Source: a virus
Length of the DNA stretch: 64,000 bases
Strand: one strand, 5' to 3'
Virus record (IMG/VR): IMGVR_UViG_3300043811_000226
Shown: positions 6,059 to 62,580 of the stretch, one piece after another
How positions within the stretch are numbered: the stretch's first letter is position 1
How the letters are laid out: the number at the start of each line of letters is the position of its first letter
Translations under genes and position numbers: made by a program
The notes under the pieces: generated by a model
Database searches by the model: none
What the model was told of the DNA's origin: nothing
The model's input: only the letters and a program-made list of their open reading frames with translations

Positions 6059-6090
6059 CAGGGTTGCTCGTGCCCAGCCCTCGGGGGTCT

Positions 6091-7320: not shown

Positions 7321-7362
7321 GGGCTCCTTTCTGCCAGCACGATGTGAGTACAACGAGTAGCT

Positions 7363-7395: not shown

Positions 7396-7401
7396 CGGGG
7401 T

Positions 7402-7626: not shown

Positions 7627-7778
7627 ACCCTGCGCGACGAGAAGGGCAGCCGTTTGAGAGAAGACGAACGAGGGGGAAGTGACCTTCTCCCATTCGACTC
7701 CGCCGTTACGGCAAGGCCTCTCCCACGAGAACGTGGTGCAGTAGCCGATGGACCCTGACCAGCCGCCTCCTACGAGCT

Positions 7779-8755: not shown

Positions 8756-8760
8756 GCGCG

Positions 8761-10063: not shown

Positions 10064-10076
10064 AGACCGAAGAGTA

Positions 10077-33391: not shown

Positions 33392-34516
33392 TTAGAACTG
33401 CGTGACGTTCGGGAACTTGAGACCGGCGTCGACTTTGTTATTCGGCGTGCCGAGCGAGTCCTCGGACACCGGCACGAAGTTCGTGAGCAGGCTGTCGGCG
33501 TTCGTGGTCGGGTTCGCGTCCGCCGAGTACAGCTCGAGCTTGCGCACCGAGGCGATGTTGATGACCGCCATCGCGATGTCCTCCCAGGCCTGGAAGGTGA
33601 TGATGTTCGCGATCTTGTCGATGTAGAACTTCGTGTTGTTCAGGACGTAGAACTTCCCGAAGAACTCCGGCTTCGTGAAGACGTACACGTTGCCGGGACG
33701 CAGGATGTCCGTCTTGACGGTACGGATGTACGCACGCCCGAAGAGGGTGTTGTACTTGTACCCGTCGACCGCCGTCTCCGACTGGAGACGGTCGCCGAAG
33801 TCCTCGAGCGTCCACTGGAGGATGTCGTCCCAGTCGACCTCCGTCATCAGCAGGCGTTCGCTGCGCAGGCGGTTGCCGTCGAGCAGCTTGAAGAGGTTGA
33901 TGACGTCGGGCCGCTGGACGGGGCGGACCGTCGCATCGTTGGTGCTGGCCGCACGCGCGAGCTCGCCCTTGCGGATCGAGAACTCGACGACGCCGGGTCC
34001 TTGGATCTGCGAGGTGTTGAGCGGGGTCGCGACGCCGCCATTCGCCTGCAGCTGCAGGGCCTGAACCGAGGCCTCGATGTTCACCGTGAACTCGCGGTCC
34101 TCGACCTCCTGGATGTCCTTCACCGAGTTCTCCTCGATGATCTTGGTGATGGGCATCTCGTAGGCGAGAAGCTCCTGCTCCGTCTTCTGGAAGATCTCCG
34201 AGCTGACGGTGTAGAAGCCGACCTCTGCCTTCGAGCCGCGGATGAACCGCGCCGTCGGGCTGCCTCGGAAGGTCATGGTGAGCGCGCGGGACTGCGGCTC
34301 GACGTCCACGATCTTCACGAGTGTGTCGTGGTTGACCGACCGCTGGCAGTCACTGCGCGTGACTTGCTCCGGCGGGATCACCTTTCGGGCGTAGGAGACC
34401 TCGCGCAGTCGGTCGCGGATGTACGAGCCACCGTACTCCGCCATCTTCTCTTTGCCCTCGGACGAACCGAGCTTCTGCGTGAAAAGCTCGTTGAGTACCC
34501 TTGCCGGAACGCTCAT
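33392..34516 (-). CDS. Major capsid protein (374 aa, HK97-like fold inferred)
   Basis: Position after protease, scaffold-like and decoration genes. IRDRLREVSYARKVIPP, EIFQKTEQELLAY, KDIQEVEDREF, YIRTVKTDIL, AWEDIAMAVINIASV. Strong SD GAGAGGAG. Confidence 0.8.
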   Translation of the reverse strand: MSVPARVLNELFTQKLGSSEGKEKMAEYGGSYIRDRLREVSYARKVIPPEQVTRSDCQRSVNHDTLVKIVDVEPQSRALTMTFRGSPTARFIRGSKAEVGFYTVSSEIFQKTEQELLAYEMPITKIIEENSVKDIQEVEDREFTVNIEASVQALQLQANGGVATPLNTSQIQGPGVVEFSIRKGELARAASTNDATVRPVQRPDVINLFKLLDGNRLRSERLLMTEVDWDDILQWTLEDFGDRLQSETAVDGYKYNTLFGRAYIRTVKTDILRPGNVYVFTKPEFFGKFYVLNNTKFYIDKIANIITFQAWEDIAMAVINIASVRKLELYSADANPTTNADSLLTNFVPVSEDSLGTPNNKVDAGLKFPNVTQF

Positions 34517-34547
34517 GGTCTTCTCCTCTCTTTTCCTGTCGTTCCGG

Positions 34548-35096
34548 TTACGAGCGCCAGCCCGAGATGAACCGGAGCTGCCCACCGTTGTTGGTGGACA
34601 AGCGAGTGACGTAGCCGACGACCGGGTCGGTGTCGGAACCCGAGAGGGCGCCGTGACCGACCAGGCCCGTGAAGTTGCGACCGCCGAACGTGATGGTGGC
34701 GATCTTCAGCGGCTGCATGACGGCCGTGATGGCCGCGCCACCATGGACGACTGCCGACGCGTCGAAGATGCGGGTGTCGCACTCGTAGTCGCCGCGCCAC
34801 AGGATGGGCATCTTGGGAGAGGAGAGGGCCTGCACGTCGTAGCGACCACGCTCGGCGAAGAGCGGGAAGCTGCGGGGCGGGAAGGCGGCGCCCGCGGGCT
34901 GGTAGGCGCCGACGGACGTGATGTCCGATGCCCGGACGATCTGGTAGGAGGAGTTGAGCGTCATCCACTCGCCATCGACCAGTGCGACGGCGTTGAGTGG
35001 ATTCGCCAGCGTGGGGTCAGAGAGGGGAAAGTCCCTGCGCTGAACCGGGAGGATGTCCGAGATGGGCGTGAAGTTGATCTTCTGCAGAGTCGACAT
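34548..35096 (-). CDS. Putative capsid decoration / cement protein (182 aa)
   Basis: Immediately upstream of the major capsid gene; beta-rich; AGGAG upstream. Confidence 0.5.
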   Translation of the reverse strand: MSTLQKINFTPISDILPVQRRDFPLSDPTLANPLNAVALVDGEWMTLNSSYQIVRASDITSVGAYQPAGAAFPPRSFPLFAERGRYDVQALSSPKMPILWRGDYECDTRIFDASAVVHGGAAITAVMQPLKIATITFGGRNFTGLVGHGALSGSDTDPVVGYVTRLSTNNGGQLRFISGWRS

Positions 35097-41208: not shown

Positions 41209-41895
41209 ATGGGAAGACAACCGCCCAGTGACTACGTCGACAAGGTCGAAGCAGCGAAGACGTTGGGCGTGTCCGTACGCACGCTCGACAACATGATCCA
41301 CAAGAACATGATCGTGCCGCACTCCTTTGCCGGCAGCAGGAAGGTCGTGTTTCTACGCTCCGATGTCTCTGCCTTGATGCAGGCCACAGGTGATGGAGGA
41401 CTCGACCTGGCCCAAGTGAAAGCGCTGGCCTTGGCTGCGCTGTCGACCTCCCGTCGCAACGAGCAGCGTATGGTGGAGCTCTATGCGCACCTGGGCATGG
41501 AACTTCTACCCCTCGCGCGTGATACGCATTCGGTGCGTTCGCTCTACGAAGAGGTGAAGCTCGGTGTAGAACCCTCGAGCGTCCACGACGCCGACTGGCT
41601 GCAGTTCTGGACCAACACCTTCTTCTCGATGGACGAGGTCTACCTTGAGCTCGTCACGCATCTGACTGGGGACGTAGAGCCGTGGTTGGTGTTCCACGAC
41701 TTAGCGAACGCCATCTTGCGAGAGCTGGATTCTTACGGACTGACACGCCCTGTGCGCATCTTCCGCGCCAGCCGAAACCACCTACGCCATGTGAGTTACA
41801 TGCACTGCCGCAGAGTGAAGGGGGTAGAAACCGCCGGCATCGTATTCGACGGCCGCGCGCGTGCGGTCGATGAGTTGAACGCCCTCATTGGTTAG
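41209..41895 (+). CDS. DNA-binding protein with N-terminal excisionase/MerR-like winged HTH (228 aa)
   Basis: YVDKVEAAKTLGVSVRTLDNMIHKNMI...KVVFLRSDV. Confidence 0.75.
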   Translation: MGRQPPSDYVDKVEAAKTLGVSVRTLDNMIHKNMIVPHSFAGSRKVVFLRSDVSALMQATGDGGLDLAQVKALALAALSTSRRNEQRMVELYAHLGMELLPLARDTHSVRSLYEEVKLGVEPSSVHDADWLQFWTNTFFSMDEVYLELVTHLTGDVEPWLVFHDLANAILRELDSYGLTRPVRIFRASRNHLRHVSYMHCRRVKGVETAGIVFDGRARAVDELNALIG

Positions 41896-43748
41896 CCCTG
41901 ATCGATGGGACCGCGGTACCCGGTACGAAGCGGACCCTGACCAGGCATCTCCCTGATGGGGCTGATTATATCCGGACGCGGCACGAGGATCATCGAGACC
42001 ATCATGCAGTAGAGGATGGAGTGGAATGTGTCGTCGGGCCGGTCCGGACGGTGCGTGTACTGCAGCATCCTCAGCGCGTTATTGTACTCCGAGAAGATGT
42101 TCAGACAGTCGTTGCCGTAGGGATCCTCGAACTCTTCCCAGCACGGCAAGTCCACCTGCTGGCGCTTGATGGCGTTGAAGATGTCGCTCATCACCTCAGT
42201 GCGCACCATCTGCCAGCGGCGGAAGTTCGGGTTCCAGAAGACCTTCTTCTTTCCGCGCGCCATGTACTGGTACTTGTGTACGCGCTTTGGACCGAACTTC
42301 CGGGTCAGGTGGTCATTGCGATCGAAGCCGCCACCGTAGTCGGCGCCGATGAGGCGCACGTTGAAGTACTGCATCATCTCGTCGATCTTTGCGAGCTGCG
42401 GCTCGGGGTCGACGTCTTCTCCTGTGAAGCGATGCACGTAGAAGATGCGGAAGCGCTGGTGCACGTACGTGCCGAGGGAAAGCACCGTGTACGTATTTTC
42501 GCCTGTGCCCCAATCGATTCCAGCGAAAATAGGCTGCCCTGCACCAAGTGAGTGGTACGCATCGAGCGCGTCCATGTTCATGTGCAAGTCGGGCTTGCAG
42601 CACTCCTTGACCTGGGCGCGTGTCAGCGGACGAAGACCTGAATCGTACGAGACGCCGAGCACCTCGTTGTAGAACTTGGCGCGGTCGTAGCGTCCGTAGT
42701 CGAGCATGATCTCGTCCCACGACCGCCACGGGACCATCAGCTGCGGGATGCGGTAGCACTCGAAGATGCCACCCTCCTGCATCTCGGCCCACTGCGCATC
42801 CTCGTGCATCGGGTTGATGAGCTGACCGCACTTCTCGCAAGACAGACCCCGCCTCTGGATGTTCTTCTCCCCCAGGATGTTCCAGTAGCGACCCGCACCA
42901 TCGGCCGAGCCGCAGCGGTCGCAAGGCACAACCCACTCGCCCATCGTGCTCATGGCTCGCCCGCGAGAAGTCCCGCTACGGTAGAACTCGAGGACGTTGT
43001 CGAGTCCCTTGGGCGTACCGGCGTAGAGGAAGCGGCGCCACTGCTCAGGAGCGTGGCTGAGTGATTGCTCGATGACGGGGATGTTGTCCGAGAGCACGTC
43101 CTGCAACTCATCGACGGCCAGGCACCAGGCAGGAATGCCTCGGGTACGGTCGGCGTTCAGGAAGGCGTAGCGCATCGTAATCTTCGAGCGGTTGACGAAC
43201 TGCTTCTCGAAGACGTTCTGCTGAAGGAGGGTGGTCGTGTAGGCCTTGAGGATGTCGCTAGTCTCGAGCGGTTCCTTGATGCGGTCGACTGAGAAGGTCT
43301 TGGTCTGTGTGGCTGACGGCGACACGTAAAGCGTACGGAAGCCCTGCACCATGCACGAGTAAGTAATGATGCGGTTGCCGAGCAGCGTGGACTTCTCAAC
43401 CTGCCGTCCGCAGAAGAGGAGGACGCGCTTGGCTGGCGTGTCGTAGACCCGGCGCATGTGCCGGCGACCTTCGAAGGTAAAGTTCTCGTAGCCCATGCCG
43501 TCGACACGCGGCATGCGGAAGGCGAACTCAGTGAACTGTGAGGGGAGCACCGCCGGGATGACGGCAGGAGCCTTGCGATCGTCATCCAGAAACGTGAAGT
43601 CGTCGAAGAGGTCTGGCTCTGGGCACCAAGGCTGGCCGTTCTCCGCGTTGTAGAGTTCCTCGTCGGATAGCTCCTCCTCGAGTGCTTCGAGATCGAGCTC
43701 GAAAGACTTCGGCACATGATTGTGCCCGTGGTAGTTGGTACCCAACAT
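41892..43748 (-). CDS. terL: Terminase large subunit (618 aa; start uncertain)
   Basis: LLFCGRQVEKST Walker A variant, TLYVSPS, LAVDELQD Walker B, YAGTPK, Cys4 insert, IFAGIDWG and PDDTFHS nuclease motifs. Confidence 0.9.
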   Translation of the reverse strand: MLGTNYHGHNHVPKSFELDLEALEEELSDEELYNAENGQPWCPEPDLFDDFTFLDDDRKAPAVIPAVLPSQFTEFAFRMPRVDGMGYENFTFEGRRHMRRVYDTPAKRVLLFCGRQVEKSTLLGNRIITYSCMVQGFRTLYVSPSATQTKTFSVDRIKEPLETSDILKAYTTTLLQQNVFEKQFVNRSKITMRYAFLNADRTRGIPAWCLAVDELQDVLSDNIPVIEQSLSHAPEQWRRFLYAGTPKGLDNVLEFYRSGTSRGRAMSTMGEWVVPCDRCGSADGAGRYWNILGEKNIQRRGLSCEKCGQLINPMHEDAQWAEMQEGGIFECYRIPQLMVPWRSWDEIMLDYGRYDRAKFYNEVLGVSYDSGLRPLTRAQVKECCKPDLHMNMDALDAYHSLGAGQPIFAGIDWGTGENTYTVLSLGTYVHQRFRIFYVHRFTGEDVDPEPQLAKIDEMMQYFNVRLIGADYGGGFDRNDHLTRKFGPKRVHKYQYMARGKKKVFWNPNFRRWQMVRTEVMSDIFNAIKRQQVDLPCWEEFEDPYGNDCLNIFSEYNNALRMLQYTHRPDRPDDTFHSILYCMMVSMILVPRPDIISPIREMPGQGPLRTGYRGPIDQG

Positions 43749-47581: not shown

Positions 47582-48205
47582 CTATACCGTTCGGATGATA
47601 CCAGCCAGGGCGACCGAGGCAGAAGGGACCTTGGTCAGCATGATGACACCGAACACCTGCTCGAAAGGCAGGATGCCACCGATACCGCCAGAAACAAGAG
47701 CTGCGTACTCCGCCACCGAGCTGGCGAGAGTCGAAGGCGAAGCGTAGCCCACCGATAGAAGAACAAGAGGACCCGCCGATAGGTTGAAGCCTGCAAGCAG
47801 GTTCACCAGCGGCAGCTTCACGGACAGAACCGCTTCGATGAGGAACTTGATGCCGCCTATGCGAAGAGAGATCGCACCACCGAGGGAGAAGGACACACCG
47901 AGCGGAGGCAAGATGGGAAGACCGAGAGACAACGCGGCAGCGATGCTCGCCTGCACCTGCAACACCGACGCAAGAAGCGTCTTCAAGTAGGCGATGGGGT
48001 CGACGATCTGCAAAGAGAATGTGACCTGCGCCGCAAGGGCAGCTTGAAGCTGTGCTTGCAAGTCCGCGATGAGAGAACCGAGCCCGAAGGGACCCGTCAG
48101 CATCAGGTCGACTTGTGCCAGCAAGGGACCGATGAGCCCTACCGTTGTGCTCAGCCCGACGTTGATACCTCCAAGGGGCAGGTCGGCGATGAAGACGGTG
48201 CTCAA
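47582..48205 (-). CDS. Very hydrophobic helical protein downstream of the spike (207 aa, TTG start)
   Basis: Almost charge-free L/A/V/G/S/P sequence; TTGA overlap with the spike stop. Confidence 0.7.
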   Translation of the reverse strand: MSTVFIADLPLGGINVGLSTTVGLIGPLLAQVDLMLTGPFGLGSLIADLQAQLQAALAAQVTFSLQIVDPIAYLKTLLASVLQVQASIAAALSLGLPILPPLGVSFSLGGAISLRIGGIKFLIEAVLSVKLPLVNLLAGFNLSAGPLVLLSVGYASPSTLASSVAEYAALVSGGIGGILPFEQVFGVIMLTKVPSASVALAGIIRTV

Positions 48206-49452
48206 GCAAGAACCTTGTTGTTACCTGTGGCGATGGTGCCGGGTAGAGGCAACGCCGGCGGACACTGAATCGTTGCCGCACACGGGGTTCCTGGTGTAGG
48301 CGGATTGGAAAACGTGAGGATGACTGGGGCTGGTACAAGTAGAGGCAAAATGACCTGGTCGCCTAGACGGGCCACGGCTGTCAGTCCCGCCCCCAGACGA
48401 ACGGTGTCTCCCTTGATGTGCGAGTACGCACCTCCATCGATGTCGAAGCCGCTTCCCGCCGTCATCTGCGCGTTGCCGCCGAAGTGCCCCTCGAAGTCGC
48501 CCTTCACCTTGAAGGTGAGCTTCTTGTCGACCTGGAGGAGCATGTTGCCCTCCGTGCGCATGAGCGTGTTGCCTGTGCGGTCGAACGTGAACTTGAAGAC
48601 CGAGTTGGCGATGGTGGCCTGACTCGCTGTCTCCCCGCTCTCCGCCACGAAGCCTTTGGGGCTGACGGTCACCTCAAAGATGATGGGGTTCTTGCCCTTG
48701 CCGTCATCGCCTTGACCGACCCCCGCCTCCGCCAAGTTCTGCCCCCCATCCGGTTCGGGTATGGGCGCGAAGACCTTGCCGCAAGCGAGCTTCACATCAG
48801 CAAACTGGTCGGTCGAGAAGACCCGAAAGGTCTGCATGTACTGACCGGGGATCTGTGTCTGGGAGGGTCCTTCCTGGATGCCCCACACAACGGAGCCCGC
48901 AGAGTTGTGGTGCTCGTAGTTCTCGCTGATGTCCTCGACCAGGTTGTTGAGCGGGATGAAGATGCGCTGAGCGAGCTCGGTTGCACCGATCTGCAGTACA
49001 CCCCCTCGATGCAGGATGACGAAGTTGCCGTCACGCGTGCGCATGACGATGTCACCGGGCTTGGGCTGCAGGCGTCCGCCGGCGAAGGTGGCGTCGGTTG
49101 TGTTGGCAGGCTGCTGTGCATGTGATGTCGTACCGGCCGGCGCGTCGTCACTCGCGTCGTCGATGGTCTCGGACGCCATGAGGAACATGCTGACGTACGG
49201 CGGTGAGCTGTCCGATGGGACGGTGACCGTGCACGTCGCGCCGACTTCTGGAAAGACGTACACGCCCTCCCCGTTCGAGTGGTGCAAGTAGAGACCACCC
49301 ACCTGGATGTCGAAGTACTTCTTGCGGTCGAACTGTGCGTTGACGTCGACCGTCCACTTCACGAGGTTGATGTTCGTGATCCGTCCCTGAATTACGCGCG
49401 CTGGGTCGTGACCCTCTACGTGCGTGAAGGACGTTCTGAACTTCGAGGCCAT
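48202..49452 (-). CDS. Baseplate central spike (gp5/gpV/VgrG-like) with PAAR-like C-terminus (416 aa)
   Basis: OB-fold-type N-terminus (QGRITNIN..WTVDV..GVYVFPEVGATCTV), beta-helix-like repeats (KLTFKVKGDFEGHFGGNAQMTAG), terminal VARLGD...GTIATGNNKV. Confidence 0.75.
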   Translation of the reverse strand: MASKFRTSFTHVEGHDPARVIQGRITNINLVKWTVDVNAQFDRKKYFDIQVGGLYLHHSNGEGVYVFPEVGATCTVTVPSDSSPPYVSMFLMASETIDDASDDAPAGTTSHAQQPANTTDATFAGGRLQPKPGDIVMRTRDGNFVILHRGGVLQIGATELAQRIFIPLNNLVEDISENYEHHNSAGSVVWGIQEGPSQTQIPGQYMQTFRVFSTDQFADVKLACGKVFAPIPEPDGGQNLAEAGVGQGDDGKGKNPIIFEVTVSPKGFVAESGETASQATIANSVFKFTFDRTGNTLMRTEGNMLLQVDKKLTFKVKGDFEGHFGGNAQMTAGSGFDIDGGAYSHIKGDTVRLGAGLTAVARLGDQVILPLLVPAPVILTFSNPPTPGTPCAATIQCPPALPLPGTIATGNNKVLA

Positions 49453-49455: not shown

Positions 49456-52400
49456 CTAGTAGTGGTGGGACGGTACAGCCTTCAGGTGCTCTCGCCCAGG
49501 CACCAGAGAGTCCTTCTTCGTCAGCCCAAACTCGGCCCCAAAAGCCACGCCCGGCACAGGATGCGTTCCGTGGAGGTGCGATACGCCGGCAGTTGCTGCT
49601 GCATCCAGCAACGTCGCACGAAGCTTCTCGTGCTGCAACTTCGCCATCCAGTCTTCTTGCATCTCGAGGGGTAGGGCCGTGATGCCCTTGAGCACGGGGG
49701 TGTGTTCTATGGGAGTGAGTCCTTGCGCCGCGAGCTCCTTGTTCCTCTTGTTGACCGAGGTCAAAGGACGGTACTCCCCTGGTAGAACATCTGGGTGACC
49801 ACCGGGGTCGACGACGCGGGTGAGGTTACTCATTGCCTTGACCACGGTCTCGACCGCGCGACGCTTGATGTCGGTCTCCTTGTACAACCCGTAGATCTCG
49901 TTGGACAGATGGTTCTGCACCTTCTCCATGGAACCGGTGGCCTCATAGATGCGGTGCGGGTTGGCGAACGTGCGGTTCGGGTCCGAGAGATGATCTCCTG
50001 CTGTTACGTGCATTCCTACAGCAGGAGGCTTCCATGCCTTGTAGCCGACAAGTGCCTCGGCGTTGGGAAGATTTTTGTGCAAGGGCAGACCACTGTCGTC
50101 CTTGCCGACGTGGTGCCGCCGATTGTTCACGAAGACGTCGACGCCCGTAGCCGTTGGCTGCACCTTGTCGATGGTCCCGGAAACCATGGCGAGCGATGCC
50201 TCGTTCGGCAGCTCGTCGTGAAGCTCCATCAGTTGCTTGAACCGAGAGAAGGAGGAAAGAAGCTTCGAGCCGTGTTGTTCGCCAACGCCCCCCATGTGGA
50301 AGCTCTTGAGCGTGAGTTGCATGGCACGTTCGCCGACCGCATGCGCTGAATGCACGCCCACGTTCGTTCCGAGGTCGTGATGCTGCCCGCCGGCACTGAG
50401 CCCCATACACTTTTGGCAGATGCCCTTCTCGCTCTCGCACTTGAGCGGTGAGCGAACAAGAAGCGTTCCGTTAGGCTTGGCGGCCTTCACCTTACTGACG
50501 AGGTCCGGTGTCAGAAGCGTTCCGGCAGGAATGTGCAGCTTGCCGTGAGAGAAATCCTGCTGCAAGTAGCGGTCGTGTATGTCCGGCTCGTTGATATCGA
50601 GCGCGATGCCTTTGCTGGTACCGCAATCGTGCTCGTCTACGAGCATGTGCATCATGTTGTTCATGAGCCGCTTGGACATGTACCCAGGCTCGCTCACTTC
50701 CTGCACCTTCATGACCGCACCGCGCCGTGCGCCGTGCATCTGCGTCCAGTAACCGCCCAGATCCAGGCCTTCGGAGTAGCTCCTGGTGACTGGAGTCGCG
50801 ATCTCCTTGTCGTTCGAATCCTTGTAGATCATAGGAGCGATGACCATCTGCTTGTAGTTGTCCCAGCCCGGCTTCACACCCGCACGGTACATCGTGAAGA
50901 GGTTGGTCGGATCCTTGTCCTGCTTCTTCTCATGCAGGGCACGCATCTCCTTGTCCGCCTTCTTGTAGAGGACGAGAGCCTGCTGATCCTTCTCAGCCTG
51001 GGAGAGACGCGAGTTGTGCTCGATGACGTCGACCTGCTTCATCACCGGGGCGAGTACGTGGTCACGCACCTGAGTGTCGGGCGTGAAATCGGCCAAGGAT
51101 AGCGTGTGCGCTCCCATGGGAACGAAGACCGACTTCTCCTTGATCGCCACGGGCGTCTTATCGAGCGTTTTGAAGAGGAGCTTGTGACCTGCACTCGTAG
51201 GCTGCGGTATGTCGACCACGCCAAAGGCCGCGCCGTTGCCCAGGTCCTTCAGCTTGTTGACGGCCTCCCCATACTGCGGTGCGTGCTCTTTGGCGACCTG
51301 TGTGAGTAGGGTGTCGAGACCACCTTTGTTGATGCGGTAGTCGAGGTTGTGCAACGTGTGCGTCTGCATGTCCGCGGGCAGGGCGCTCGAGAGCAGAACA
51401 CGACCTGCCGTGGTCTTCTTTCCACCCAGGTGCACCACATCGTTCACGTGCAAGCTGCCGCTACGTACGGCATCGAGGATGCTGCCGGGGTGGTCGAACT
51501 TTTTTCCCGTGTCCTTGCCAACCAACGACAGCTTGTAGAGGCCGAGGGCGCTCTCGAGCGTCGGCTGGTACATGACCTTGCCGCTCGCCTCGCTGAAGAG
51601 GTTGTTCGACGGGAACATCTTGTGCGCCTCTTCGAGCGCTTCGCGCGTGATGGGCACGAAGGCACTCATCGTGTCGCCGTCGAAGTCGGCGTTGAAGCCG
51701 CCAGTCACAAGCGGGTGGATCTTGATGGCGCTGCCCTCGACTGGACGGGCCTTGAAGGCCTGCACGCTGTACTTGTGCAGGGCCGGGTCGCGCTTCAGAA
51801 GGAGAGGGCGCTTGTCCATCACCCGGTCAAGAGCACGCCAGACCTGCGGCGTCTTCTTGGCGAGAGCCGCAGGTCCCTGCATCTCGTTCTGAATGGCGCC
51901 CATCTCCTTGAGCTCGCGCACGACGAAGGGGCGGTACAGGTCCAGTGCGGCATGCCTGGGGATCCCCACTTCATCAAGTCCGAGCGCGGGCTCCGGAACG
52001 ATGGTGGACCGCATCGTCAGGTCCTGACGCCGGTTGATGAGAACGTCCTGGAAGAAGCCATGCTTAGGCGAGCTCCCCGTGATCTCGTGGAGAAGCCCCT
52101 TGTGCGGAACCTCCGCATACGTGCCGAAGCCCATGATGGCCTTGACGCCATCGTAGTAGTCGCGGCGTAGATCCTTCTTGCCCTCGTCGGTGAGGTTCTT
52201 GGAGAGAACCGGGTCCTTCAGCTTGTCGTTGACCTTGGCGAAGTCCGAGTAGAGCGAGTTGATGTCGTGGAACCGTACGTTGCCATCAGGCAGCATCGAG
52301 ACCGGACGCATGATGGGTGGCAGCACAGGTAGCTGGTGAAGTACGTACGCCTCGCTCGGCTTCATGCCTGTCTGGCTGAGTGCACGCAAGTACTTCACCT

Positions 52401-55400
52401 TTTTCAGGCCCTGGTCGAGCTTGGCGCCCTTGACTCCCTTGAGAGCCGCGGTCGCCTTGGGGAGCTCCTTGTTCACGTCGACGCGGTTCAGAAGAAGCTC
52501 GATGCCGGCGCCGCCAGTGACACCGGCGTCGACGCTCGTGACGTGACCGTTCGCCGTAACTCCCTTGTCTCCGTGTACGACCGCCATGAAGTCGTTCTTG
52601 GAGAGGCCCGTCAGAGCACGAATGGGCGTCTCGAAGATGGGGTTGGGCACTGGCTCGGAGAGACGAATGCGTGACCAGCGACGGCCTCCATGGCCTCCTG
52701 TGATCCCCTCGTCGAACAAGCCACCCGGCTTGACTTTCGGGATGCCACTCTTGTCTAGCTTCGAAGAGAGGATGTCGGCGGGGTTGGGCAGCTCTTTCTT
52801 CGCCAGGTTGAGCACGTGCTCGTCTGTCATCGGCGTCAGAACGAAGTCGTTGCCCTTCTTGTCCATGTTCACACCCATGCCGCGAAGCATGTCGGTGAAC
52901 TTCTGGAAGGCGAAGGCGGGCTTCGGCGTGGGCAGAGGAGCACCTGTCTGAATGGCCGCCCAGATCTTGTCGTGGTCACTCGGCCAACGCTTGCTCGGAT
53001 CAGACTGCGGATCGCGCCCCTCCGACTTGTACGTCTGCATCTCGCGGATGTTCGCCTTCGCTCCATGCGCGAGGAGCGCGTAGAGGCCGAGCGTGCCCAT
53101 GGACTGGCCTCCTGTACCGGAACCACCTGTAGGCTGCAGATTCGTATCGTAGTGCTCCTGCGCTCCTCCGCGCAGGTCCATACCGCTTCGTACTGAGAGC
53201 TTCTTCTCGACCTGGTGGGCCAGCTTCAAGTGGTGCTGTGGTCCCACCATCACCTTGCCCAGACTCTGCTTGGTGGCCGGATCGAAAAGCTCCTCGGTGT
53301 CTGAGAGACCGTGCGCTTTGAGCGCGGCGCGCACCTCCGCCAAGCTGTCGACGTTCGGTGCGAAGTTGCGGACGATGTAGGGCTTATGTGTCTTCTCTGC
53401 AATCTTGCCGGCCGCCGTCTCGAGCAGCTGGCCAACGTTCATGCGCCCCGGCACGCCGCTAGGATTGAGCGCCACTTCGACGTGCTTGCCGTCCTTGGTG
53501 TGCGGCATCTCCTGGTCAGGCAGGATCATCGTGACGATGCCCTTGTTGCCGTAGCGCCCGGCCATCTTGTCGCCGACCTGCATCGGCTCGACCGTACGTA
53601 CATGCACGGACAGGCCGTCTTTGCCTTTGTGCACCCCAACGACCTCACCCTCGAAGTCGCTGTCCCAGAGAAGACTCTTGTTCGTGTGCCCTCCGCTCAT
53701 GCTCTTGCGGATGGCAGCGAGGCCGGTCCTGTCTTTCAGGTTGTACGGCTTCATCGCCGCGATGAGCGGGTCGCCAGGCTTGACCTTGGTGCCCACTTTT
53801 ATGACGCCATCGTCGTCGAGGCGTGCGTACTGCTCCTTGCTAAAGAGACCTGGATGCTCGAGGTGGAACTTCTTCTTGCTCAGCACCAGGTCCGAATCGA
53901 GCGGCAGCGAGTGCTTCTGCAAGTGCTCGCTCGAGAGCTTCTCGGCAGCACTCTCTGAAATGACGATGCCGTCCTCGAAGTTGTATCCCTTGAAGGGAAT
54001 GTACGCGGTGCGCAAGTTGGTACCAAGCGCGAGGTCGCCGTTCTTCGAGTAGTTCGTGTCCGCGATGATCTGCCCCGCCTTCACCGAGTCTCCGGCTTTC
54101 ACGAGAGTCGTCGAGTGCATGACCCCCTTCGCATCATTGAGCGGGTAGTTGTTGTAGAGCTGCACCTCGTGCTTCTGTCCGCCCTTGTCCTCGAGGATGA
54201 TGGCGTCCTTCTTCACGTCGAGGACCTTGCCGTCGACAAGGGACGCATGTGACGACTGCCGCCCCATCATCCCTTCGAACGTCGGCGAAGACTTCATCCC
54301 CGTTCCCACCTGCACGAGTGGTGCTTGCCGATGTACGAGGGAGACGGCTTGCTCCATCTGACGACTGGCCATCGAAGCCCGCCCGCCGCTCGTGTTGCCG
54401 AGGAAAGGGATGAGGTTCGACGTCGGGTTGAACAGCTGCCATGCGTGCGGCATCACGTAAGTGGCATCCTCGAACTTGCCGTCTCGGATCTCGTTTCCGG
54501 GCGTGCTCATTCGAACGGTCTTGGCGATGGGCTTCGGCTTGCCGCCCTCCCAGGTCACTTGATCAGGAAGAACAACACTCGCGTGCATAAACTTCGTGGG
54601 CGAGACGAGCTCCGTCTCGCCTGTGCGAAGGTTGTGCAGACGAATCTTGACCTCGTGTCCCTCCTTCTTGATCCCGATGGGCATGCGCAGCGTGACGCCC
54701 GTCTTCTCCCCTTCCGGTGTATTGATGGGATCGAGGAACCCGAGATGGCTCGGGTCGACGAACTTGGCGTTGTAGGTGATGGAGCGCTCGTTCTTGATGC
54801 CGCCCGTCCCCATCACGGTCGTCTGCAGCGCCGACGAGATCATTTCGACGGGGTTGTACTGAGACGGTACGCGCGCAGAGCTGTTCTTGTGGAAGGACTC
54901 CTTGAGCGGCCGGTTGAACAAGTCGAACTTGATGACGTCTCGGATGTCCTTGGCGGTGTTGATCTTGCGCGACGTCTTCTCCTGGATGTTGCGGTTGGCG
55001 TAGCGAAGGGCGTCGTTGGCGTAGTCGCCCACCGTACGCAGATCCTTGAAGACGAGTGAGTCGCGGTCGTCCTCAGGATGTCCAGCGTGCACCTTCAGTA
55101 ACTTCTGCGTCGCGAGGCGCAGCGCTTCACCCGTCACGTTGGTGAACGGCTTGCCGACCGTGACTTCGGTCGCGTCAGGACGAAGCGTCGACGCGGACAT
55201 CCGGTCGTAGAAATGCGTCGCTGCAGTCTCTCGATCCGGAGCTGCGGTCTTCTTGGTCGTTCGGTAGAAAGAATCGAGCACGCCGGACGCACCACGCGCG
55301 TTCTTGTTCGCCTCGAGCACTTCTTTGCCCCAGGCCTTCTCGAGGTCGTGGTCCTCCACCCCCATCGTCTTGAGCAGGTGGTAGAGCGGCATGTGCGTCT

Positions 55401-55899
55401 TGCTCGGCTCGTACTGCATCGAGAAGACCTTGCTCGCAGGATCGAGCAAGAGGTCGAACTGGCGCACACCCTTGGCAGTCGCACTGCCGGTCACGTTGAA
55501 GTGGCTCTCGAGCTCACCGCTCGCGCGCCGGCGCGTGTAGATGCCAGGCTTGAGCTGCCACTGGTTGTCGACCTGGTACTCCTGCCCGTTGATGATGTAC
55601 GAGTAGCGTCCCGTGATCTTCGGGATGTCCACGAGGCGGATGCGTCGCTGGTCGACGACCTTACCGCTGGCGTTGTCTTTGAGCGTGAGGTGCGCGTAGA
55701 CGGGTACGGCCCACGTATCCCCGCTCACTTTCGCCGCGTGCTGGCTGCGGATGTCGTCAGGGTGCTTGTCGTCCTTCACCTCAATCTTGTCGAGGTGAAC
55801 AGTCTGCAACTTTCCCTTGAGGGGGAACTGTCCTGAGATGCCTTCCAGGACGCGTCCTTGAAGTTGCTCGGACGCTTCCTGCAGGTCGAGGTAGGCCAT
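49456..55899 (-). CDS. rpoBC-like: DNA-directed RNA polymerase, beta and beta' fused in one polypeptide (2147 aa)
   Basis: Beta motifs IPKITGRYSYIINGQEYQV, TPEGEKTG, GYNFED, GDKMAGRYGNKG, NPSGVPGRMNVGQ, GGQSMG, then without a stop beta' motifs GGLFD, PVLPPIMRP, KRDPALHK, FNADFDGD, HGARRG, C..C..C Zn site, QLTLKSFHMGG. Confidence 0.97.
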   Translation of the reverse strand: MAYLDLQEASEQLQGRVLEGISGQFPLKGKLQTVHLDKIEVKDDKHPDDIRSQHAAKVSGDTWAVPVYAHLTLKDNASGKVVDQRRIRLVDIPKITGRYSYIINGQEYQVDNQWQLKPGIYTRRRASGELESHFNVTGSATAKGVRQFDLLLDPASKVFSMQYEPSKTHMPLYHLLKTMGVEDHDLEKAWGKEVLEANKNARGASGVLDSFYRTTKKTAAPDRETAATHFYDRMSASTLRPDATEVTVGKPFTNVTGEALRLATQKLLKVHAGHPEDDRDSLVFKDLRTVGDYANDALRYANRNIQEKTSRKINTAKDIRDVIKFDLFNRPLKESFHKNSSARVPSQYNPVEMISSALQTTVMGTGGIKNERSITYNAKFVDPSHLGFLDPINTPEGEKTGVTLRMPIGIKKEGHEVKIRLHNLRTGETELVSPTKFMHASVVLPDQVTWEGGKPKPIAKTVRMSTPGNEIRDGKFEDATYVMPHAWQLFNPTSNLIPFLGNTSGGRASMASRQMEQAVSLVHRQAPLVQVGTGMKSSPTFEGMMGRQSSHASLVDGKVLDVKKDAIILEDKGGQKHEVQLYNNYPLNDAKGVMHSTTLVKAGDSVKAGQIIADTNYSKNGDLALGTNLRTAYIPFKGYNFEDGIVISESAAEKLSSEHLQKHSLPLDSDLVLSKKKFHLEHPGLFSKEQYARLDDDGVIKVGTKVKPGDPLIAAMKPYNLKDRTGLAAIRKSMSGGHTNKSLLWDSDFEGEVVGVHKGKDGLSVHVRTVEPMQVGDKMAGRYGNKGIVTMILPDQEMPHTKDGKHVEVALNPSGVPGRMNVGQLLETAAGKIAEKTHKPYIVRNFAPNVDSLAEVRAALKAHGLSDTEELFDPATKQSLGKVMVGPQHHLKLAHQVEKKLSVRSGMDLRGGAQEHYDTNLQPTGGSGTGGQSMGTLGLYALLAHGAKANIREMQTYKSEGRDPQSDPSKRWPSDHDKIWAAIQTGAPLPTPKPAFAFQKFTDMLRGMGVNMDKKGNDFVLTPMTDEHVLNLAKKELPNPADILSSKLDKSGIPKVKPGGLFDEGITGGHGGRRWSRIRLSEPVPNPIFETPIRALTGLSKNDFMAVVHGDKGVTANGHVTSVDAGVTGGAGIELLLNRVDVNKELPKATAALKGVKGAKLDQGLKKVKYLRALSQTGMKPSEAYVLHQLPVLPPIMRPVSMLPDGNVRFHDINSLYSDFAKVNDKLKDPVLSKNLTDEGKKDLRRDYYDGVKAIMGFGTYAEVPHKGLLHEITGSSPKHGFFQDVLINRRQDLTMRSTIVPEPALGLDEVGIPRHAALDLYRPFVVRELKEMGAIQNEMQGPAALAKKTPQVWRALDRVMDKRPLLLKRDPALHKYSVQAFKARPVEGSAIKIHPLVTGGFNADFDGDTMSAFVPITREALEEAHKMFPSNNLFSEASGKVMYQPTLESALGLYKLSLVGKDTGKKFDHPGSILDAVRSGSLHVNDVVHLGGKKTTAGRVLLSSALPADMQTHTLHNLDYRINKGGLDTLLTQVAKEHAPQYGEAVNKLKDLGNGAAFGVVDIPQPTSAGHKLLFKTLDKTPVAIKEKSVFVPMGAHTLSLADFTPDTQVRDHVLAPVMKQVDVIEHNSRLSQAEKDQQALVLYKKADKEMRALHEKKQDKDPTNLFTMYRAGVKPGWDNYKQMVIAPMIYKDSNDKEIATPVTRSYSEGLDLGGYWTQMHGARRGAVMKVQEVSEPGYMSKRLMNNMMHMLVDEHDCGTSKGIALDINEPDIHDRYLQQDFSHGKLHIPAGTLLTPDLVSKVKAAKPNGTLLVRSPLKCESEKGICQKCMGLSAGGQHHDLGTNVGVHSAHAVGERAMQLTLKSFHMGGVGEQHGSKLLSSFSRFKQLMELHDELPNEASLAMVSGTIDKVQPTATGVDVFVNNRRHHVGKDDSGLPLHKNLPNAEALVGYKAWKPPAVGMHVTAGDHLSDPNRTFANPHRIYEATGSMEKVQNHLSNEIYGLYKETDIKRRAVETVVKAMSNLTRVVDPGGHPDVLPGEYRPLTSVNKRNKELAAQGLTPIEHTPVLKGITALPLEMQEDWMAKLQHEKLRATLLDAAATAGVSHLHGTHPVPGVAFGAEFGLTKKDSLVPGREHLKAVPSHHY

Positions 55900-56018
55900 C
55901 GGGTGCGCCCTAAGGGAGGCACGTGCAGCGTACCGCGCAGGCGCAAACGCGTGCAAGGCTGTCGCGCCGAAGGGCATAAGAATTGTGAAGGTGCACGTTC
56001 ACTTCTCGAGGAGAAACG

Positions 56019-56150
56019 ATGGGACCAAAGACGAACGACAACTCGGGAGCGCGCTTCGAAGAGGAGATCGACACGCTGTTTGTACCGCCACAAGAAGAGG
56101 AAGACGAGCAAGGAGAAGACGAGCAGGGGGATAAGAAGCTCGGTGACTAA
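56019..56150 (+). CDS. Acidic micro-protein (43 aa; absent from the supplied ORF track)
   Basis: GAGGAG then ATG; MGPKTNDNSGARFEEEIDTLFVPPQEEEDEQGEDEQGDKKLGD. Confidence 0.55.
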   Translation: MGPKTNDNSGARFEEEIDTLFVPPQEEEDEQGEDEQGDKKLGD

Positions 56151-56833: not shown

Positions 56834-57414
56834 TGGCTGAGCTGACTATGCAGCCCTCCGGCCAGGTCTGTGCGGACTGCGGCGAAAACATCCGCTACAC
56901 AGAAGAAGCGTGGCTGGTGCAGGTCGTTCAGCTGCAGAAGGTCGGCGACCAGCTTCAGTACACGCCAGTCATCGATGAAACAGACCCAGCGCGCGACTTC
57001 CTGTTCTCACCGTACTTCTTCTGCTTCAACTGCTGGGAGAACAGCTACGAAGATCTAAAGGACGAGCTGGAAGACCAGCCGCCCAACGAAGACCCCCACA
57101 GCATCGCTGAGTGCACCTGCTGCGGTAGCAGCATTCGGGCTGGTGAGTACACAGGGCTCTTCATGGTCGGAGAGTTCCACTTGTCGCGTAGGTCGCCGAA
57201 CGGCGTGTCGGGAGGGACCTTCCAACCAAACGCTGCGCCTGAGGCGCTCTGCTTCTACTGCCTCTACATCCTCAACGACAACTTCATCGAGATGTGGGAC
57301 GAAGTCTCGCAATTCGGTGAGTGCGCAGACTGCATCTTCGTTCGCTGCTGGAGAGGTGCTTCCTGCTCCTGCGGCTGCCATACACCTGCACTCGAGACCA
57401 CGGAGACAACCTGA
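56818..57414 (+). CDS. Multi-Zn-finger Cys-rich protein (198 aa)
   Basis: CADC, CFNC, CTCC, CFYC, CADC..C..C..C.C. Confidence 0.75.
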   Translation: MEPNLVAELTMQPSGQVCADCGENIRYTEEAWLVQVVQLQKVGDQLQYTPVIDETDPARDFLFSPYFFCFNCWENSYEDLKDELEDQPPNEDPHSIAECTCCGSSIRAGEYTGLFMVGEFHLSRRSPNGVSGGTFQPNAAPEALCFYCLYILNDNFIEMWDEVSQFGECADCIFVRCWRGASCSCGCHTPALETTETT

Positions 57415-58598
57415 TGGCGACCAACCCTGAGAACCTGCTGACCATTGCTTTGCTCACGCCGCAAGACGACCCGCGCGACCCTGTCTGCCGATGGGGAGGT
57501 CCAGTCCTTCTCTGGGGGCCGCCGGGCATCGGCAAGTCAGGCATCATCGAGCAGACCGGCGAAGGCCTCGACCTGTCTGTCGAGACGCTTTACCTCTCAA
57601 CCCTGCAACCGGAGGACATCTCAGGCATTCCGATGCCAGACGCTAAGTTCGGTGCGAGGCGCGTGTGCGACCTGCCGCAGATCCAAGGTCTCTACGAAGC
57701 AGGTCGAGGCATTCTCTTTCTCGACGAGCTCACTACAGCGCGTCCCGCAGTCCAGGGAGCAGGTCTCGGCATCGTCTACAACCGCAAGATCGCCGGCAAG
57801 CACCTACCTCCTGGTGTCAGGGTCGTCGGTGCTGCCAACAAGGCCGAAGACGCCGCCGGCGGCTGGAACTTGGCTGCCCCCATGGCCAACCGCCTGCTTC
57901 ACTTCGACCTAACCGCACCGTCTCCCGAGAAGTGGGCCTCCTGGTTGCTCACAGGTCCCAACGAGATGCCCATCTCCATCACCGCAGGCGAGGAGATGGT
58001 ACGAGAACAATGGGGCAGCATCTGGCCCAAGTACCAGGGTCTCGGTGCAGGCTTCGTCAAGAGCAACGGTGCCAAACTCTACGCCATGCCGGCAGCGGGT
58101 CACAAGGACCGAGGGCGTGCATGGGCGTCTCCGCGCAGCTGGGTTAGTGCACTTCGTTGCATGGCCACTGCTGAAGCGCTCGACATGAAGGAGTACGCGC
58201 TCGACATGCTCACCGGCGCAGTGGGTGACGGTCCTGGAGCGGAGTGGGCAGAGTGGGTCGCGAAAGCGAACCTGCCAGACCCGAAGGACATCCTCGAGAA
58301 CGGCTGGCACCCGGATCGATCTCGGCTCGATGTCGCGTTCGCTGCCTACTCGTCGGCCATCGGATGGGCCTTGTGCAAGGTCGACAAGGCCGAACAGGAG
58401 AAGTACGCCGTCATGGCCTGGGACCTCATCGCGATGGCCATCAAGGACCGCGTGGCCGACATCGTGCTGCCCTGCGGCGCGTCGCTGATGCGCGCCGGGT
58501 ACACCACCAAGAAAGGCGGTGCCATCGCCAAGGCTGCCATGGGTCCCACAGTGCACTTTGGCGAGACGAACCTCGCCAACTACGTGAGTAAGAGATGA
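57414..58598 (+). CDS. MoxR-like AAA+ ATPase (394 aa)
   Basis: WGPPGIGKS Walker A, ILFLDEL Walker B, VVGAAN, PMANRLLH, SPRSW. Confidence 0.9.
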   Translation: MATNPENLLTIALLTPQDDPRDPVCRWGGPVLLWGPPGIGKSGIIEQTGEGLDLSVETLYLSTLQPEDISGIPMPDAKFGARRVCDLPQIQGLYEAGRGILFLDELTTARPAVQGAGLGIVYNRKIAGKHLPPGVRVVGAANKAEDAAGGWNLAAPMANRLLHFDLTAPSPEKWASWLLTGPNEMPISITAGEEMVREQWGSIWPKYQGLGAGFVKSNGAKLYAMPAAGHKDRGRAWASPRSWVSALRCMATAEALDMKEYALDMLTGAVGDGPGAEWAEWVAKANLPDPKDILENGWHPDRSRLDVAFAAYSSAIGWALCKVDKAEQEKYAVMAWDLIAMAIKDRVADIVLPCGASLMRAGYTTKKGGAIAKAAMGPTVHFGETNLANYVSKR

Positions 58599-60513: not shown

Positions 60514-62580
60514 TCAACCACCAGCGCGGCGCGCGGGCAGCTGTTCTGGCTGAGGGCGCATATCGACGGCGTTGGCGGTGCTCTTGCCACCAGCCTGCGT
60601 TGCAGGAGCTGCGCCCATCGCGGTCAGCATCTGCTCGACGAGGTCGGCAAGGTCGGGACTCTGAAGGCGCAGGTTCTGCAGGGCGATGGTCTTCTGCTTG
60701 TCCGGCATCTGCGCAATCATGTGCGCCTGCGCCTGGGCGAACGACGGGAGGTCGACGTTCAGGCCACTCGAGGGCGTCATCTTCTGGTTGCCCTTCAGCT
60801 GACTCGCGACGTTCGACAGGAAGTCCTGCGGGCCGTTGCTGTTCGCAGGTTGCCCTGCTGGAAGTTGCGGTGCGGGCTGCGCGGTTTCTAGCTGTTGCTG
60901 CTCATCAGGTACCACACCTGCGGCTGCCATCTCACCGCCAGGTACTCCTCCGCCTGCTGCGTCGGGTCCACCGGGTTCGCCTGGCGCGTTCGGCGCACCC
61001 TGCGCTGCCATCATCGCTTCCTGGGCCTTGGCCTGGAACTTCATCATGACGAGCTGCGCTTCGCCCTGGATCTCGGCTATCGCGAGCTGCTGCTTCTTGG
61101 TCGCCTCGAGACGCGCATCGGTCTCGCGGATCATGATCTGGTTCTCCTCATCCTGCGAGAGGTCGCTATCGGCGAGGAGCGTCGTGTCCGAGACCTTGTT
61201 CGACTGGTTCAACTGGAAGAGGTAGGCCTTACGCTGCAGGTCGTCGGCCATCTTGAACGGCTTGAAGCGGATCTGCGCCTCAGGCCACCCGAGATATGCA
61301 GCCACCTGCTTCATCACGAACTTGGCCAGCGCCTTGTGTCTCAGGATGTACCCGAGGAACATGTTCTCCATCATGCGCATGGAGACGTTGGTGCCCGCGT
61401 AGCTCATGCCGCCAAGCAGAAACTCGCGTGGCACGCCCATGCCTGTCATGATCTGCTCGGACCATGCCTGAATTTCGGCCGTGAGGAGAAGCGCGCGCCC
61501 ATCCCCACCAATGGTCTGGTTGCCCATCGGAAGCGGCAGAATGGGGATATAGTTGTTGTCGTAGCGCCAGCGCGCAATCTCGGCGGCGATCTGATCACGC
61601 CAGTCGACGAGGTTGATGGTCGTGTACGGATCCGAGCTCCCGCTGCCTGCCTGCGGGAAGAGCACCCGAAGGGGCACGATGTGCTCTAGCAGGATGGCCT
61701 CCTGCGCCTTCTTCATCACTTGCAGGTAGAACGTGTCCTTGAGCACTGGCAAAAGGAGCGGCGTTCCCCATCCGCGGTCCTGCGTCGCCAGCGTCGGCCG
61801 GCGCATGTGGAAGAAGTTGTCCTTCGAGAAGATGACGCCCTTCTGCTCCTGCATGGCCTGGATGAAGACCTGCGGTACGCCCTCGACCACGTCCTTGCGC
61901 CCGATGACGATGTCATTCCGTACGGTCGAGGGGATGGTGTAGAAGTACGTGTACTCTCCCGAGATGTCGTTGTACGTGATCTCGATGTCCTCCGGGTTCC
62001 ACCGGATGGTTTTGATGCCGCTCGCGTTCTTGTAGTAGAAGTCCTTCGCGAGCGCGTCGCCGACGTACCGGCACTTCGGGCACGTCATGCGGAACTGGAA
62101 GCTCGTGAAGATCCAGTTGGCTCGGATCTTCGCGGCTTCGTCGCGGAAGTCGCAGTTCTTGCAGTAGAGGTACTTCTTGAACGGGAAGCCGAGGCTCACA
62201 CACCCGTTGCCGTACGCGTGGTAGTCGAGACCGCACTCTATCTGAAACGCCCGGTAGCGAAGGTGGTCCTGGAAGTACTCCGTCCACCGTTTCTTCACCT
62301 CAGGGCTCTCGTGGTCGATGATGATGTCGGTGACGGGATACTCCGAGAGCTTGAAGACCGTCGCGTTGATGAGCGGGTTGGTGAGAAAGTAGTACCGGCA
62401 CCACTTGAACAGTTGCTTGACCGTGACGGGCAGGTACGTGTGTGCAACGTCGAAGAAAGGGCTCGGGTAGTTGACCCCTTGCACCGGTGAGCCCTGAATG
62501 CGTCCTCGCGTTGCGGCGAACCGCAGACCGCTCGCCGGCCCGGTCGCAACACCCATTCCGCCGCCGCCGATGAAACTCAT
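60514..62580 (-). CDS. Portal protein (688 aa) with Zn-ribbon insertion and Gln/Pro/Ala-rich tail
   Basis: NPLINATVFKLSEYP, GLDYHAYGN.CVSL, FFHMRR..DRGWGTPLLLPVLKD, Q.IGGDG, IMTGMGVP.EFL.GG.SYA pattern of phage portals. Confidence 0.85.
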   Translation of the reverse strand: MSFIGGGGMGVATGPASGLRFAATRGRIQGSPVQGVNYPSPFFDVAHTYLPVTVKQLFKWCRYYFLTNPLINATVFKLSEYPVTDIIIDHESPEVKKRWTEYFQDHLRYRAFQIECGLDYHAYGNGCVSLGFPFKKYLYCKNCDFRDEAAKIRANWIFTSFQFRMTCPKCRYVGDALAKDFYYKNASGIKTIRWNPEDIEITYNDISGEYTYFYTIPSTVRNDIVIGRKDVVEGVPQVFIQAMQEQKGVIFSKDNFFHMRRPTLATQDRGWGTPLLLPVLKDTFYLQVMKKAQEAILLEHIVPLRVLFPQAGSGSSDPYTTINLVDWRDQIAAEIARWRYDNNYIPILPLPMGNQTIGGDGRALLLTAEIQAWSEQIMTGMGVPREFLLGGMSYAGTNVSMRMMENMFLGYILRHKALAKFVMKQVAAYLGWPEAQIRFKPFKMADDLQRKAYLFQLNQSNKVSDTTLLADSDLSQDEENQIMIRETDARLEATKKQQLAIAEIQGEAQLVMMKFQAKAQEAMMAAQGAPNAPGEPGGPDAAGGGVPGGEMAAAGVVPDEQQQLETAQPAPQLPAGQPANSNGPQDFLSNVASQLKGNQKMTPSSGLNVDLPSFAQAQAHMIAQMPDKQKTIALQNLRLQSPDLADLVEQMLTAMGAAPATQAGGKSTANAVDMRPQPEQLPARRAGG

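Follow-up and report, generated by a model that had tools for sequence, protein, structure and literature searches.

A phage-encoded RNA polymerase carrying β and β′ on one polypeptide, conserved in a large lineage of tailed phages

Phage RNA polymerases (RNAPs) of the multisubunit type have so far been met either in a shattered form, as in phiKZ and AR9, or in a minimal and diverged form, as in crAss gp66 and YonO. In bacteria, the fused RpoBC proteins of Helicobacter/Wolinella and Wolbachia are chains of about 2840-2890 amino acids (aa), which work with α2, ω and σ. Salmonella phage Arash (OQ632216.1), a myovirus with a 95-nm head, has an RNAP composed of Gp206 and Gp216 and a sigma factor, Gp10; the paper on this phage labels the two RNAP pieces "β" and "β′" and makes no mention of a fusion (PMC10585845). 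This article describes an RNAP gene in a stretch of 64,000 nucleotides (nt), hereafter the window, of the IMG/VR virus record IMGVR_UViG_3300043811_000226. The stretch belongs to an uncultured phage of about 170 kilobases (kb), and here β and β′ lie on one intact open reading frame (ORF) of the minus strand. A search of the literature found no paper describing this β-β′ fusion or the RNAP family to which it belongs. With a probability of about 0.72, the chain is read here as the catalytic core, in one polypeptide, of the phage's own bacterial-type RNAP, an enzyme that would be α-free, directed by a phage sigma factor, made late, packaged in the virion and insensitive to rifampicin.

The gene is located as follows:

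49456..55899, minus strand: single-chain RNA polymerase gene, 2147 aa from M27, stop codon included

The stop-free frame runs from 55977 to 49456 and comprises 2173 codons when counted from the first ATG (55977). Residue numbers in this article follow this 2173-residue frame, in which M27 (55899) is the preferred start and gives a product of 2147 aa. This start is preferred because a 2147-aa JGI protein entry with 100% identity to the RNAP begins at M27, because the alignments of homologues begin at about residue 27, and because a conserved candidate promoter lies inside the extra 26 codons. Pfam domains follow one another along the chain in the order Rpb2_3 and Rpb2_6 (β), then Rpb1_1, Rpb1_2 and Rpb1_5 (β′), and the matches of Rpb1_2 and Rpb2_6 exceed the Pfam cut-offs. 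In addition, a PDB sequence search matched residues 79-989 to bacterial β (E 5e-69 to 1e-68) and residues 1151-2138 to bacterial β′ (E about 1e-93). A first-pass annotation of the window, made from the letters and a list of ORFs, had described an uninterrupted 2147-aa ORF starting at 55899, in which β precedes β′, with NADFDGD at 51673-51693, a bridge helix and a trigger loop, and about 600 aa shorter than E. coli β + β′. These particulars agree with the frame, the start evidence, the motif positions and the Pfam and PDB matches, and the deficit amounts to 2749 - 2147 = 602 aa. Its overall description of a phage-encoded, bacterial-type, single-chain β-β′ enzyme with intact catalytic motifs is likewise supported, and phage genes lie around the RNAP gene.

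The passage from β to β′, which had been placed near 52820-52870, is real and conserved, with the same layout across the family:

52825..52899, minus strand: fusion junction FTDMLRGMGVNMD-KKGN-DFVLTPMT (peptide FTDMLRGMGVNMDKKGNDFVLTPMT), residues 1027-1051

The two modules meet end to end at residues 1035-1051. Compared with E. coli, 3 residues are lost at the end of β and 14 at the start of β′, and K1040, G1042, P1049 and T1051 are invariant in a 38-sequence alignment. The structure prediction that the first-pass annotation had proposed was made with AlphaFold2 for residues 850-1560 from the family alignment (mean predicted local distance difference test, pLDDT, 77); in it, the strands on either side of the junction pair across a turn of two residues and make a tight β-hairpin (pLDDT 84-89). 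Foldseek matched this model to the N-terminal half of bacterial β′ and to the cyanobacterial γ subunit.

The fusion is not peculiar to one assembly. A scan of IMG/VR gave 72 RNAP loci with 39-73% identity, in which every complete gene is a single ORF, 2040-2200 aa long or, with inteins, 2500-3000 aa. Another scan, which started from an unfused relative, added ten fused ORFs (30-38% identity). HMMER was run with query residues 560-1700 over 1.84 billion cluster representatives; the best 150 representatives of 50% clusters that it listed were all members of the RNAP family (E < 1e-192), most of them 2000-2160 aa or longer. Moreover, a 100-residue probe spanning the junction revealed no length change in any family member aligned, including Arash and Vibrio phage D69. 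The fused chain and the same junction recur in more than 60 independent viral contigs at 30-75% identity, and because these independent assemblies share the junction, a hidden stop codon, whether through a sequencing error or otherwise, and an assembly chimera at this place are excluded.

This conservation also bears on the alternative that the gene is simply a cellular rpoBC, either recently captured or brought in by a misbinned bacterial contig, or that the fusion is an error of assembly or sequencing. Such an explanation can appeal to the fusions that exist in Helicobacter and Wolbachia and to a homologue on the 13.6-Mb chromosome of Pendulispora rubella, a 2045-aa product with 60% identity annotated as a hypothetical protein (LVJ94_35230). 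However, the same junction is kept down to 30% identity, the RNAP gene has phage genes around it (capsid, portal, terminase and spike-like protein), and among the relatives are contigs of 186-196 kb that bear direct terminal repeats. Furthermore, the scores against models of the cellular proteins are low: 316.7 bits for TIGR02013 (cellular rpoB; cut-off 801) and 408.4 bits for TIGR02386 (cellular rpoC; cut-off 963.5), while the best NCBIfam models, which are those of cellular fused RpoBC, give 488 against 5372 bits (NF007172) and 429 against 4632 bits (NF011417), about ten times under the cut-offs. The nearest cellular β′ sequences have 26-31% identity and come from unrelated phyla. A β′ tree of 41 sequences (LG+C20+F+G4 by posterior mean site frequencies, PMSF, quick search) splits 12 cellular β′ of diverse phyla, together with that of Rhizobium phage TM30, from all junction-sharing phages with 100% support on a branch of 0.98, and paths inside the phage RNAP family are longer than those between the bacterial phyla in the sample. 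Nesting within a cellular rpoBC clade with short branches, the outcome that the first-pass annotation had named as contrary to its reading, is not what this tree gives. Judged from its sequence, the RNAP is not a captured cellular rpoBC, and the alternative, whose probability is practically nil, is refuted.

The Pendulispora locus may be a prophage or a remnant of one and is a clue to the host. Two RNAP fragments were binned in metagenome-assembled genomes of Myxococcota, one of them on a 2-kb contig, and the guanine + cytosine (G + C) content of the window is 60-67%. These are hints that the host of the window phage belongs to the Myxococcota.

Among 50,697 phage records, whole-length matches to the RNAP were obtained only with Vibrio phages D69, D181 and D148 (31%) and with Salmonella phage Arash (33%), and megablast of 24 kb against the same records gave no match. 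The capsid protein of the window likewise matched only Arash Gp226 and proteins of these three Vibrio phages, so the kinship with Arash and D69 covers the whole phage and not only the polymerase. Arash and D69, which form a long-branched pair on the β′ tree, have in common with the window the β-β′ junction and the loss of the β′ zinc-binding domain, and their capsid, portal and terminase are homologous to those of the window; the portal, which lies just upstream of the RNAP gene in Arash, is close to it in the window too. Whereas the window has one chain, Arash and D69 have two pieces, the break falling about 90 residues past NADFDGD: one of 1525 aa (β + N-terminal β′) and one of 606 aa (the remaining β′), with up to nine genes in between. 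Because the junction and the zinc-binding-domain deletion are shared, the fusion is older than the divergence of Arash/D69 from the window phage, and the split in Arash and D69 is secondary. On the tree, the unfused relatives P0312, P0313 and P0299 nest among fused forms, as does the β′ of IMGVR_UViG_3300028626_000002; therefore, the chain has been re-split more than once, at sites other than that of Arash. The family constitutes a very large lineage of tailed phages of roughly 125-200 kb related to Arash and D69, and the fused architecture is ancestral to this lineage and conserved across it.

Some further features of the family were noticed in these comparisons. In IMGVR_UViG_3300028626_000002, β (2-3682) and β′ (7977-11108) are separate and about 4.3 kb apart. 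Inteins (PF14528), one to several, occur in the RNAP of many members, with ORFs of 2500-4700 aa; a frequent insertion point lies just after NADFDGD, and the RNAP gene of the window is without inteins. In Vibrio phages D181 and D148, the stretch matching the query contains an annotated homing endonuclease gene.

The anatomy of the chain was established against Salmonella RpoB + RpoC, which have the same numbering as E. coli (25.6% identity, 2017 aligned positions):

52864..55899, minus strand: β module, residues 27 to about 1038, with Rpb2_3 and Rpb2_6, without E. coli SI1 and SI2
54811..54873, minus strand: counterpart of the rifampicin pocket of β, residues 369-389
53539-53574, minus strand: β motif GDKMAGRYGNKG (active-site lysines), residues 802-813, intact
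49456..52863, minus strand: β′ module, residues about 1039-2173, no SI3
52660..52725, minus strand: scar of the deleted β′ zinc-binding domain, GGLFDEGITGGHGG-RRWSRIRL, replacing E. coli β′ 68-99 with its four cysteines
51673..51693, minus strand: catalytic NADFDGD, residues 1429-1435
50650-50733, minus strand: bridge helix, by motif alignment
50407..50637, minus strand: second zinc site (Zn2), kept, with C1785 (DEHDCGT) and C1847, C1854 and C1857 (CESEKGICQKC)
50284-50334, minus strand: trigger loop, N-terminal arm, QLTLKSFH, by motif alignment

The catalytic core is intact, both double-psi barrels included. The β′ module holds the clamp helices, the lid and rudder region, the catalytic double-psi barrel, the bridge helix and the trigger loop. 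Collinearity with the bacterial subunits extends to the flap and clamp helices as well as to the bridge helix and trigger loop. The segments missing relative to E. coli are 215-357 (SI1), 933-1049 (SI2) and parts of 1126-1198 in β, and 948-1147 (SI3) in β′. In addition, the N-terminal zinc-binding domain of β′ (E. coli 68-99) is gone family-wide, with TGGHGG in its place here, and the only 4 cysteines of the whole RNAP are exactly the ligands of Zn2. Two small insertions, residues 1588-1622 and 1967-1985, are specific to the family. The first-pass annotation had called the enzyme compact, which holds as far as its length is concerned; however, the difference lies mostly in the absence of the E. 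coli-specific SI1, SI2 and SI3. The compactness consists of absent lineage-specific insertions of E. coli together with the loss of one universal bacterial element, the β′ zinc-binding domain. In the counterpart of the rifampicin pocket, none of the key residues, at which resistance to rifampicin is established in E. coli RpoB, is kept (Q513R, D516S, H526S, R529Q, S531T and L533M; also I572T), and because of this the enzyme should be naturally insensitive to rifampicin.

The partners of the core were sought in five complete or nearly complete relatives of 171-196 kb, two of which have terminal repeats. Each carries exactly one RNAP gene, and an ORF of the sigma-70 family is present in all five, with Sigma70_r3 above the Pfam cut-off in four of them. 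The sigma factor of the closest relative has 38% identity to Arash Gp10 (E 1e-26), and its gene neighbourhood there has no informative annotation. The best NCBIfam models for the sigma factors of the relatives are mostly FliA/WhiG, all far under their cut-offs. In the same five relatives, α (PF01000/PF01193) gave no match and ω (PF01192) no credible match, whereas the controls were positive in 14 of 14 genomes. A 252-aa ORF of the window (21554-22312), considered as a sigma candidate from the gene order of Arash, was rejected, having neither a Pfam match nor similarity to Gp10. Since a sigma-70-family homologue of Arash Gp10 is encoded by all five relatives, initiation most likely requires that the enzyme be joined by a second polypeptide, which is also made by the phage. 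The term "self-contained" used in the first-pass annotation is thus to be qualified: it fits the lack of detectable α and ω in the five relatives, and it does not fit a sigma factor in all of them.

The same data can be explained in another way, namely that the fused chain is only a core that borrows the α dimer, ω and/or sigma of the host and works as a hybrid enzyme. The chain is nearly completely collinear with bacterial β/β′, including the regions that contact α and ω, no phage α or ω was found, and the promoter of its own operon (see below) is sigma-70-like, all of which is in keeping with such a hybrid. On the other side, at about 26% identity the docking of host subunits across Salmonella, Vibrio and the probable Myxococcota is unlikely, and a phage sigma is conserved throughout the family. 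Moreover, the phage multisubunit RNAPs of phiKZ and AR9 work without α or ω, and an artificially tethered β-β′ of E. coli was reportedly functional in the hands of Severinov and co-workers in 1997. The hybrid is consequently regarded as improbable, and a core that dispenses with α and ω and is directed by a phage sigma factor is preferred.

The genes and signals around the RNAP gene are as follows:

33392..34585, minus strand: major capsid protein, no Pfam match, homologous to Arash Gp226
41892..43748, minus strand: terminase large subunit, PF05876 GpA_ATPase, phrog_675, homologous to Arash gp1
48202..49452, minus strand: central-spike/membrane-piercing-like protein, 416 aa, 3 nt past the RNAP stop, weak baseplate PHROG
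55927..55956, minus strand: candidate promoter of the RNAP/structural operon, TTGCAC-N18-TACGCT, 29 nt before the M27 start
55954..55982, plus strand: divergent promoter-like element, CAAGG-N17-GGCATAAGAA, facing the plus-strand cassette
56020-56148, plus strand: acidic peptide, 42 aa, with a strong ribosome-binding site; a small hydrophobic peptide also precedes the ATPase
60514..62580, minus strand: portal, 31-33% identity to the portals of Arash (gp204) and D69

The minus-strand genes are tightly packed from the RNAP gene through the terminase, and therefore the RNAP gene is the head of the particle-gene operon. The 416-aa spike-like gene is found behind the RNAP gene in 20 relatives or more; its model is mediocre and gives weak but consistent matches, with weak TM-scores, to phi92 gp138, P2 gpV, the R2 pyocin spike and VgrG.

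The region of 120 nt between the RNAP gene and the plus-strand cassette has diverged in the relatives except for two conserved elements, which stand out. TTGCAC-N18-TACGCT is kept in sequence and spacing in four relatives; it emerged only through their alignment, a sigma-70 consensus scan of 47-58 kb having given no match, and with a looser pattern a second exact match at 10431-10461 was taken as chance. The other element, CAAGG-N17-GGCATAAGAA, is followed, about 38 nt on, by a strong ribosome-binding site and the ATG at 56020, and its GGG(C/G)ATAAGAA box is conserved in relatives and directed away from the RNAP gene. Both divergent elements are likely to act as promoters. The patterns CAA-N19-ATAAG and GGSATAAG occur in the window in 3 copies against 0.7 expected and in 2 against 1.0, which is chance level, and of the ATAAG-type copies only the one facing the plus-strand cassette beside the RNAP gene looks real. 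The two elements overlap at 55927-55982, where the CCTTGCAC box is, on the opposite strand, the CAAGG box, with ATAAG 22 nt farther on; L003, one of the relatives, has 12 nt less between the two elements.

The plus-strand cassette (57321-59977, the small ORFs starting at 56020) is flanked by the portal gene and the RNAP gene and diverges from the latter. It encodes a MoxR-like AAA_5 ATPase (425 aa) and then a DUF2201 protein (460 aa) with VWA-like and putative metallopeptidase domains, which PHROGs labels "HNH endonuclease"; two further ORFs of the cassette gave no family match. Farther away, a 1152-aa ORF (22538-25996, minus strand) shows a clear coding signal; it matched nothing in Pfam or PHROGs and does not resemble gp4 and gp8, the large virion proteins of Arash.

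From these elements the following scheme can be drawn. The covalent tether would replace the α-dimer scaffold on which cellular β and β′ are assembled, so that the enzyme would be active without α or ω, and a phage sigma-70-family factor (FliA/WhiG-like, a homologue of Gp10) would dock on the clamp helices and flap for initiation. The RNAP gene would be transcribed from its own TTGCAC-N18-TACGCT promoter at the head of the particle operon, which continues with the spike-like gene and on to the terminase. Since the gene comes first in that operon, the enzyme would be made late; it would then probably be packaged and enter the next host cell together with the DNA, there to set off the new infection, a step proposed because the virion proteome of Arash suggests it. 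Phage transcription would be insensitive to rifampicin. In particle preparations of Arash, the highest and the fifth-highest spectral counts belong to the two RNAP chains (Gp206 and Gp216, in an order not implied here), and the sigma factor Gp10 was covered to 100% (PMC10585845).

Several points weigh against this scheme. The sigma factor was found in the five relatives, and in the window's own genome it would lie outside the 64 kb, and the clamp helices and flap tip are kept yet strongly diverged. It is possible that analogues of α and ω are present but too diverged for Pfam, or that host subunits are used. The promoter of the RNAP operon resembles that of the housekeeping sigma-70 and not the FliA type, and therefore the RNA polymerase of the host could transcribe the RNAP gene. 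The activity of the fully fused members is predicted from their sequences. In addition, the Arash virion proteome includes many replication enzymes, and its authors warn of abundant non-structural contaminants (PMC10585845); because of the possible contamination, packaging is not proven even in Arash.

The last points lead to a different account of the timing, in which the fused enzyme is real but stays inside the cell for the middle and late genes, while transcription of the early genes, and of the RNAP gene too, falls to the host RNAP. The housekeeping-like promoter and the many non-structural enzymes of the Arash preparation speak for it, and so does the single RNAP per genome, unlike the phiKZ-type phages, which need a virion and a non-virion enzyme. 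However, the RNAP gene heads the particle operon, only 3 nt before the spike-like gene and near the portal, and does so in the relatives too, and an enzyme first made alongside capsid and tail proteins would come too late for the middle genes. The ranking of the two Arash chains by spectral count also tells against it. An unpackaged enzyme is therefore judged unlikely, though deserving serious consideration, and the packaged, late enzyme is preferred.

A stronger form of the preferred reading is that the fused chain and a small phage sigma factor make up a complete two-polypeptide machine, packaged, independent of the host RNAP and insensitive to rifampicin, in which the tether makes α and ω dispensable. 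This form is tentative and is put at somewhat worse than even odds. If it is true, a very large and apparently widespread lineage, infecting enterobacteria, vibrios and probably myxobacteria, runs its whole programme without the host RNAP. Activity without α and ω would be direct proof that tethering can replace the α scaffold, and would provide structural and synthetic biology with a simple two-component transcription system of the bacterial type. The cultured members Arash and D69 make virion-delivered transcription directly testable. Furthermore, the diversity of the family (a β′ spread larger than that of the 12 bacterial phyla sampled), its inteins and its cultured members Arash and D69 make this RNAP useful as a deep marker of phage phylogeny, and surveys that demand two separate β and β′ hits can miss a large share of phage RNAP diversity.

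Among known systems, the mReC lineage is similar in that it comprises tailed uncultured phages with an RNAP alignable to cellular β/β′ and branching outside the cellular clades, and its subunits are of comparable size (β about 1000-1400 aa, β′ about 900-1000 aa). The tables of the mReC paper give separate β and β′ gene identifiers, two per enzyme, for the phage entries consulted (PMC7481178). The lineage is further defined by capsid PF07068 and terminase PF03237, and fused forms are mentioned only for crAss (PMC7481178). In contrast to the separate genes of mReC, the window has one RNAP ORF, a terminase of PF05876 and a capsid without a Pfam match. PF07068 was found in none of five relatives, distant fused and unfused ones included, which is a weak negative as the control genomes were unmatched too, and PF03237 was absent or under the cut-off in the same five. 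By the published markers, the window phage is placed outside the mReC lineage, the RNAP tree containing no mReC sequences. Cobetia phage Carin-5, tried as a stand-in for mReC, was uninformative (a branch of 10 substitutions per site and no IMG/VR relatives). This cultured marine phage has adjacent genes for sigma, β (1083 aa) and β′ (927 aa) at 1541-8366; the subunit sizes match the small mReC type, and it could be a cultured handle on mReC.

Like the fused RpoBC of Helicobacter/Wolinella (NF007172) and Wolbachia (NF011417), the window RNAP has β end to end with β′; it lies outside the cellular clade, and therefore the fusion arose independently of theirs. Like the enzymes of phiKZ and AR9, it is a phage-encoded two-barrel enzyme, apparently without α or ω. 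However, those phages have two enzymes each, of four or five polypeptides, which are far more diverged and have no canonical sigma, whereas the window family has a single enzyme made of a single chain, and its partner can be recognised as a member of the sigma-70 family. With crAss-like gp66, YonO and the tape-measure-fused RNAP of P23-45, it shares the presence of both barrels on one polypeptide; gp66 and the P23-45 RNAP are virion proteins. These three are minimal and are missed by cellular β/β′ profiles, whereas the window RNAP is collinear with the bacterial subunits over about 2000 residues. Beside the shattered and the minimal enzymes, the window family is a third type of solution, in which a single chain provides a nearly complete bacterial core that probably works with a canonical sigma factor.

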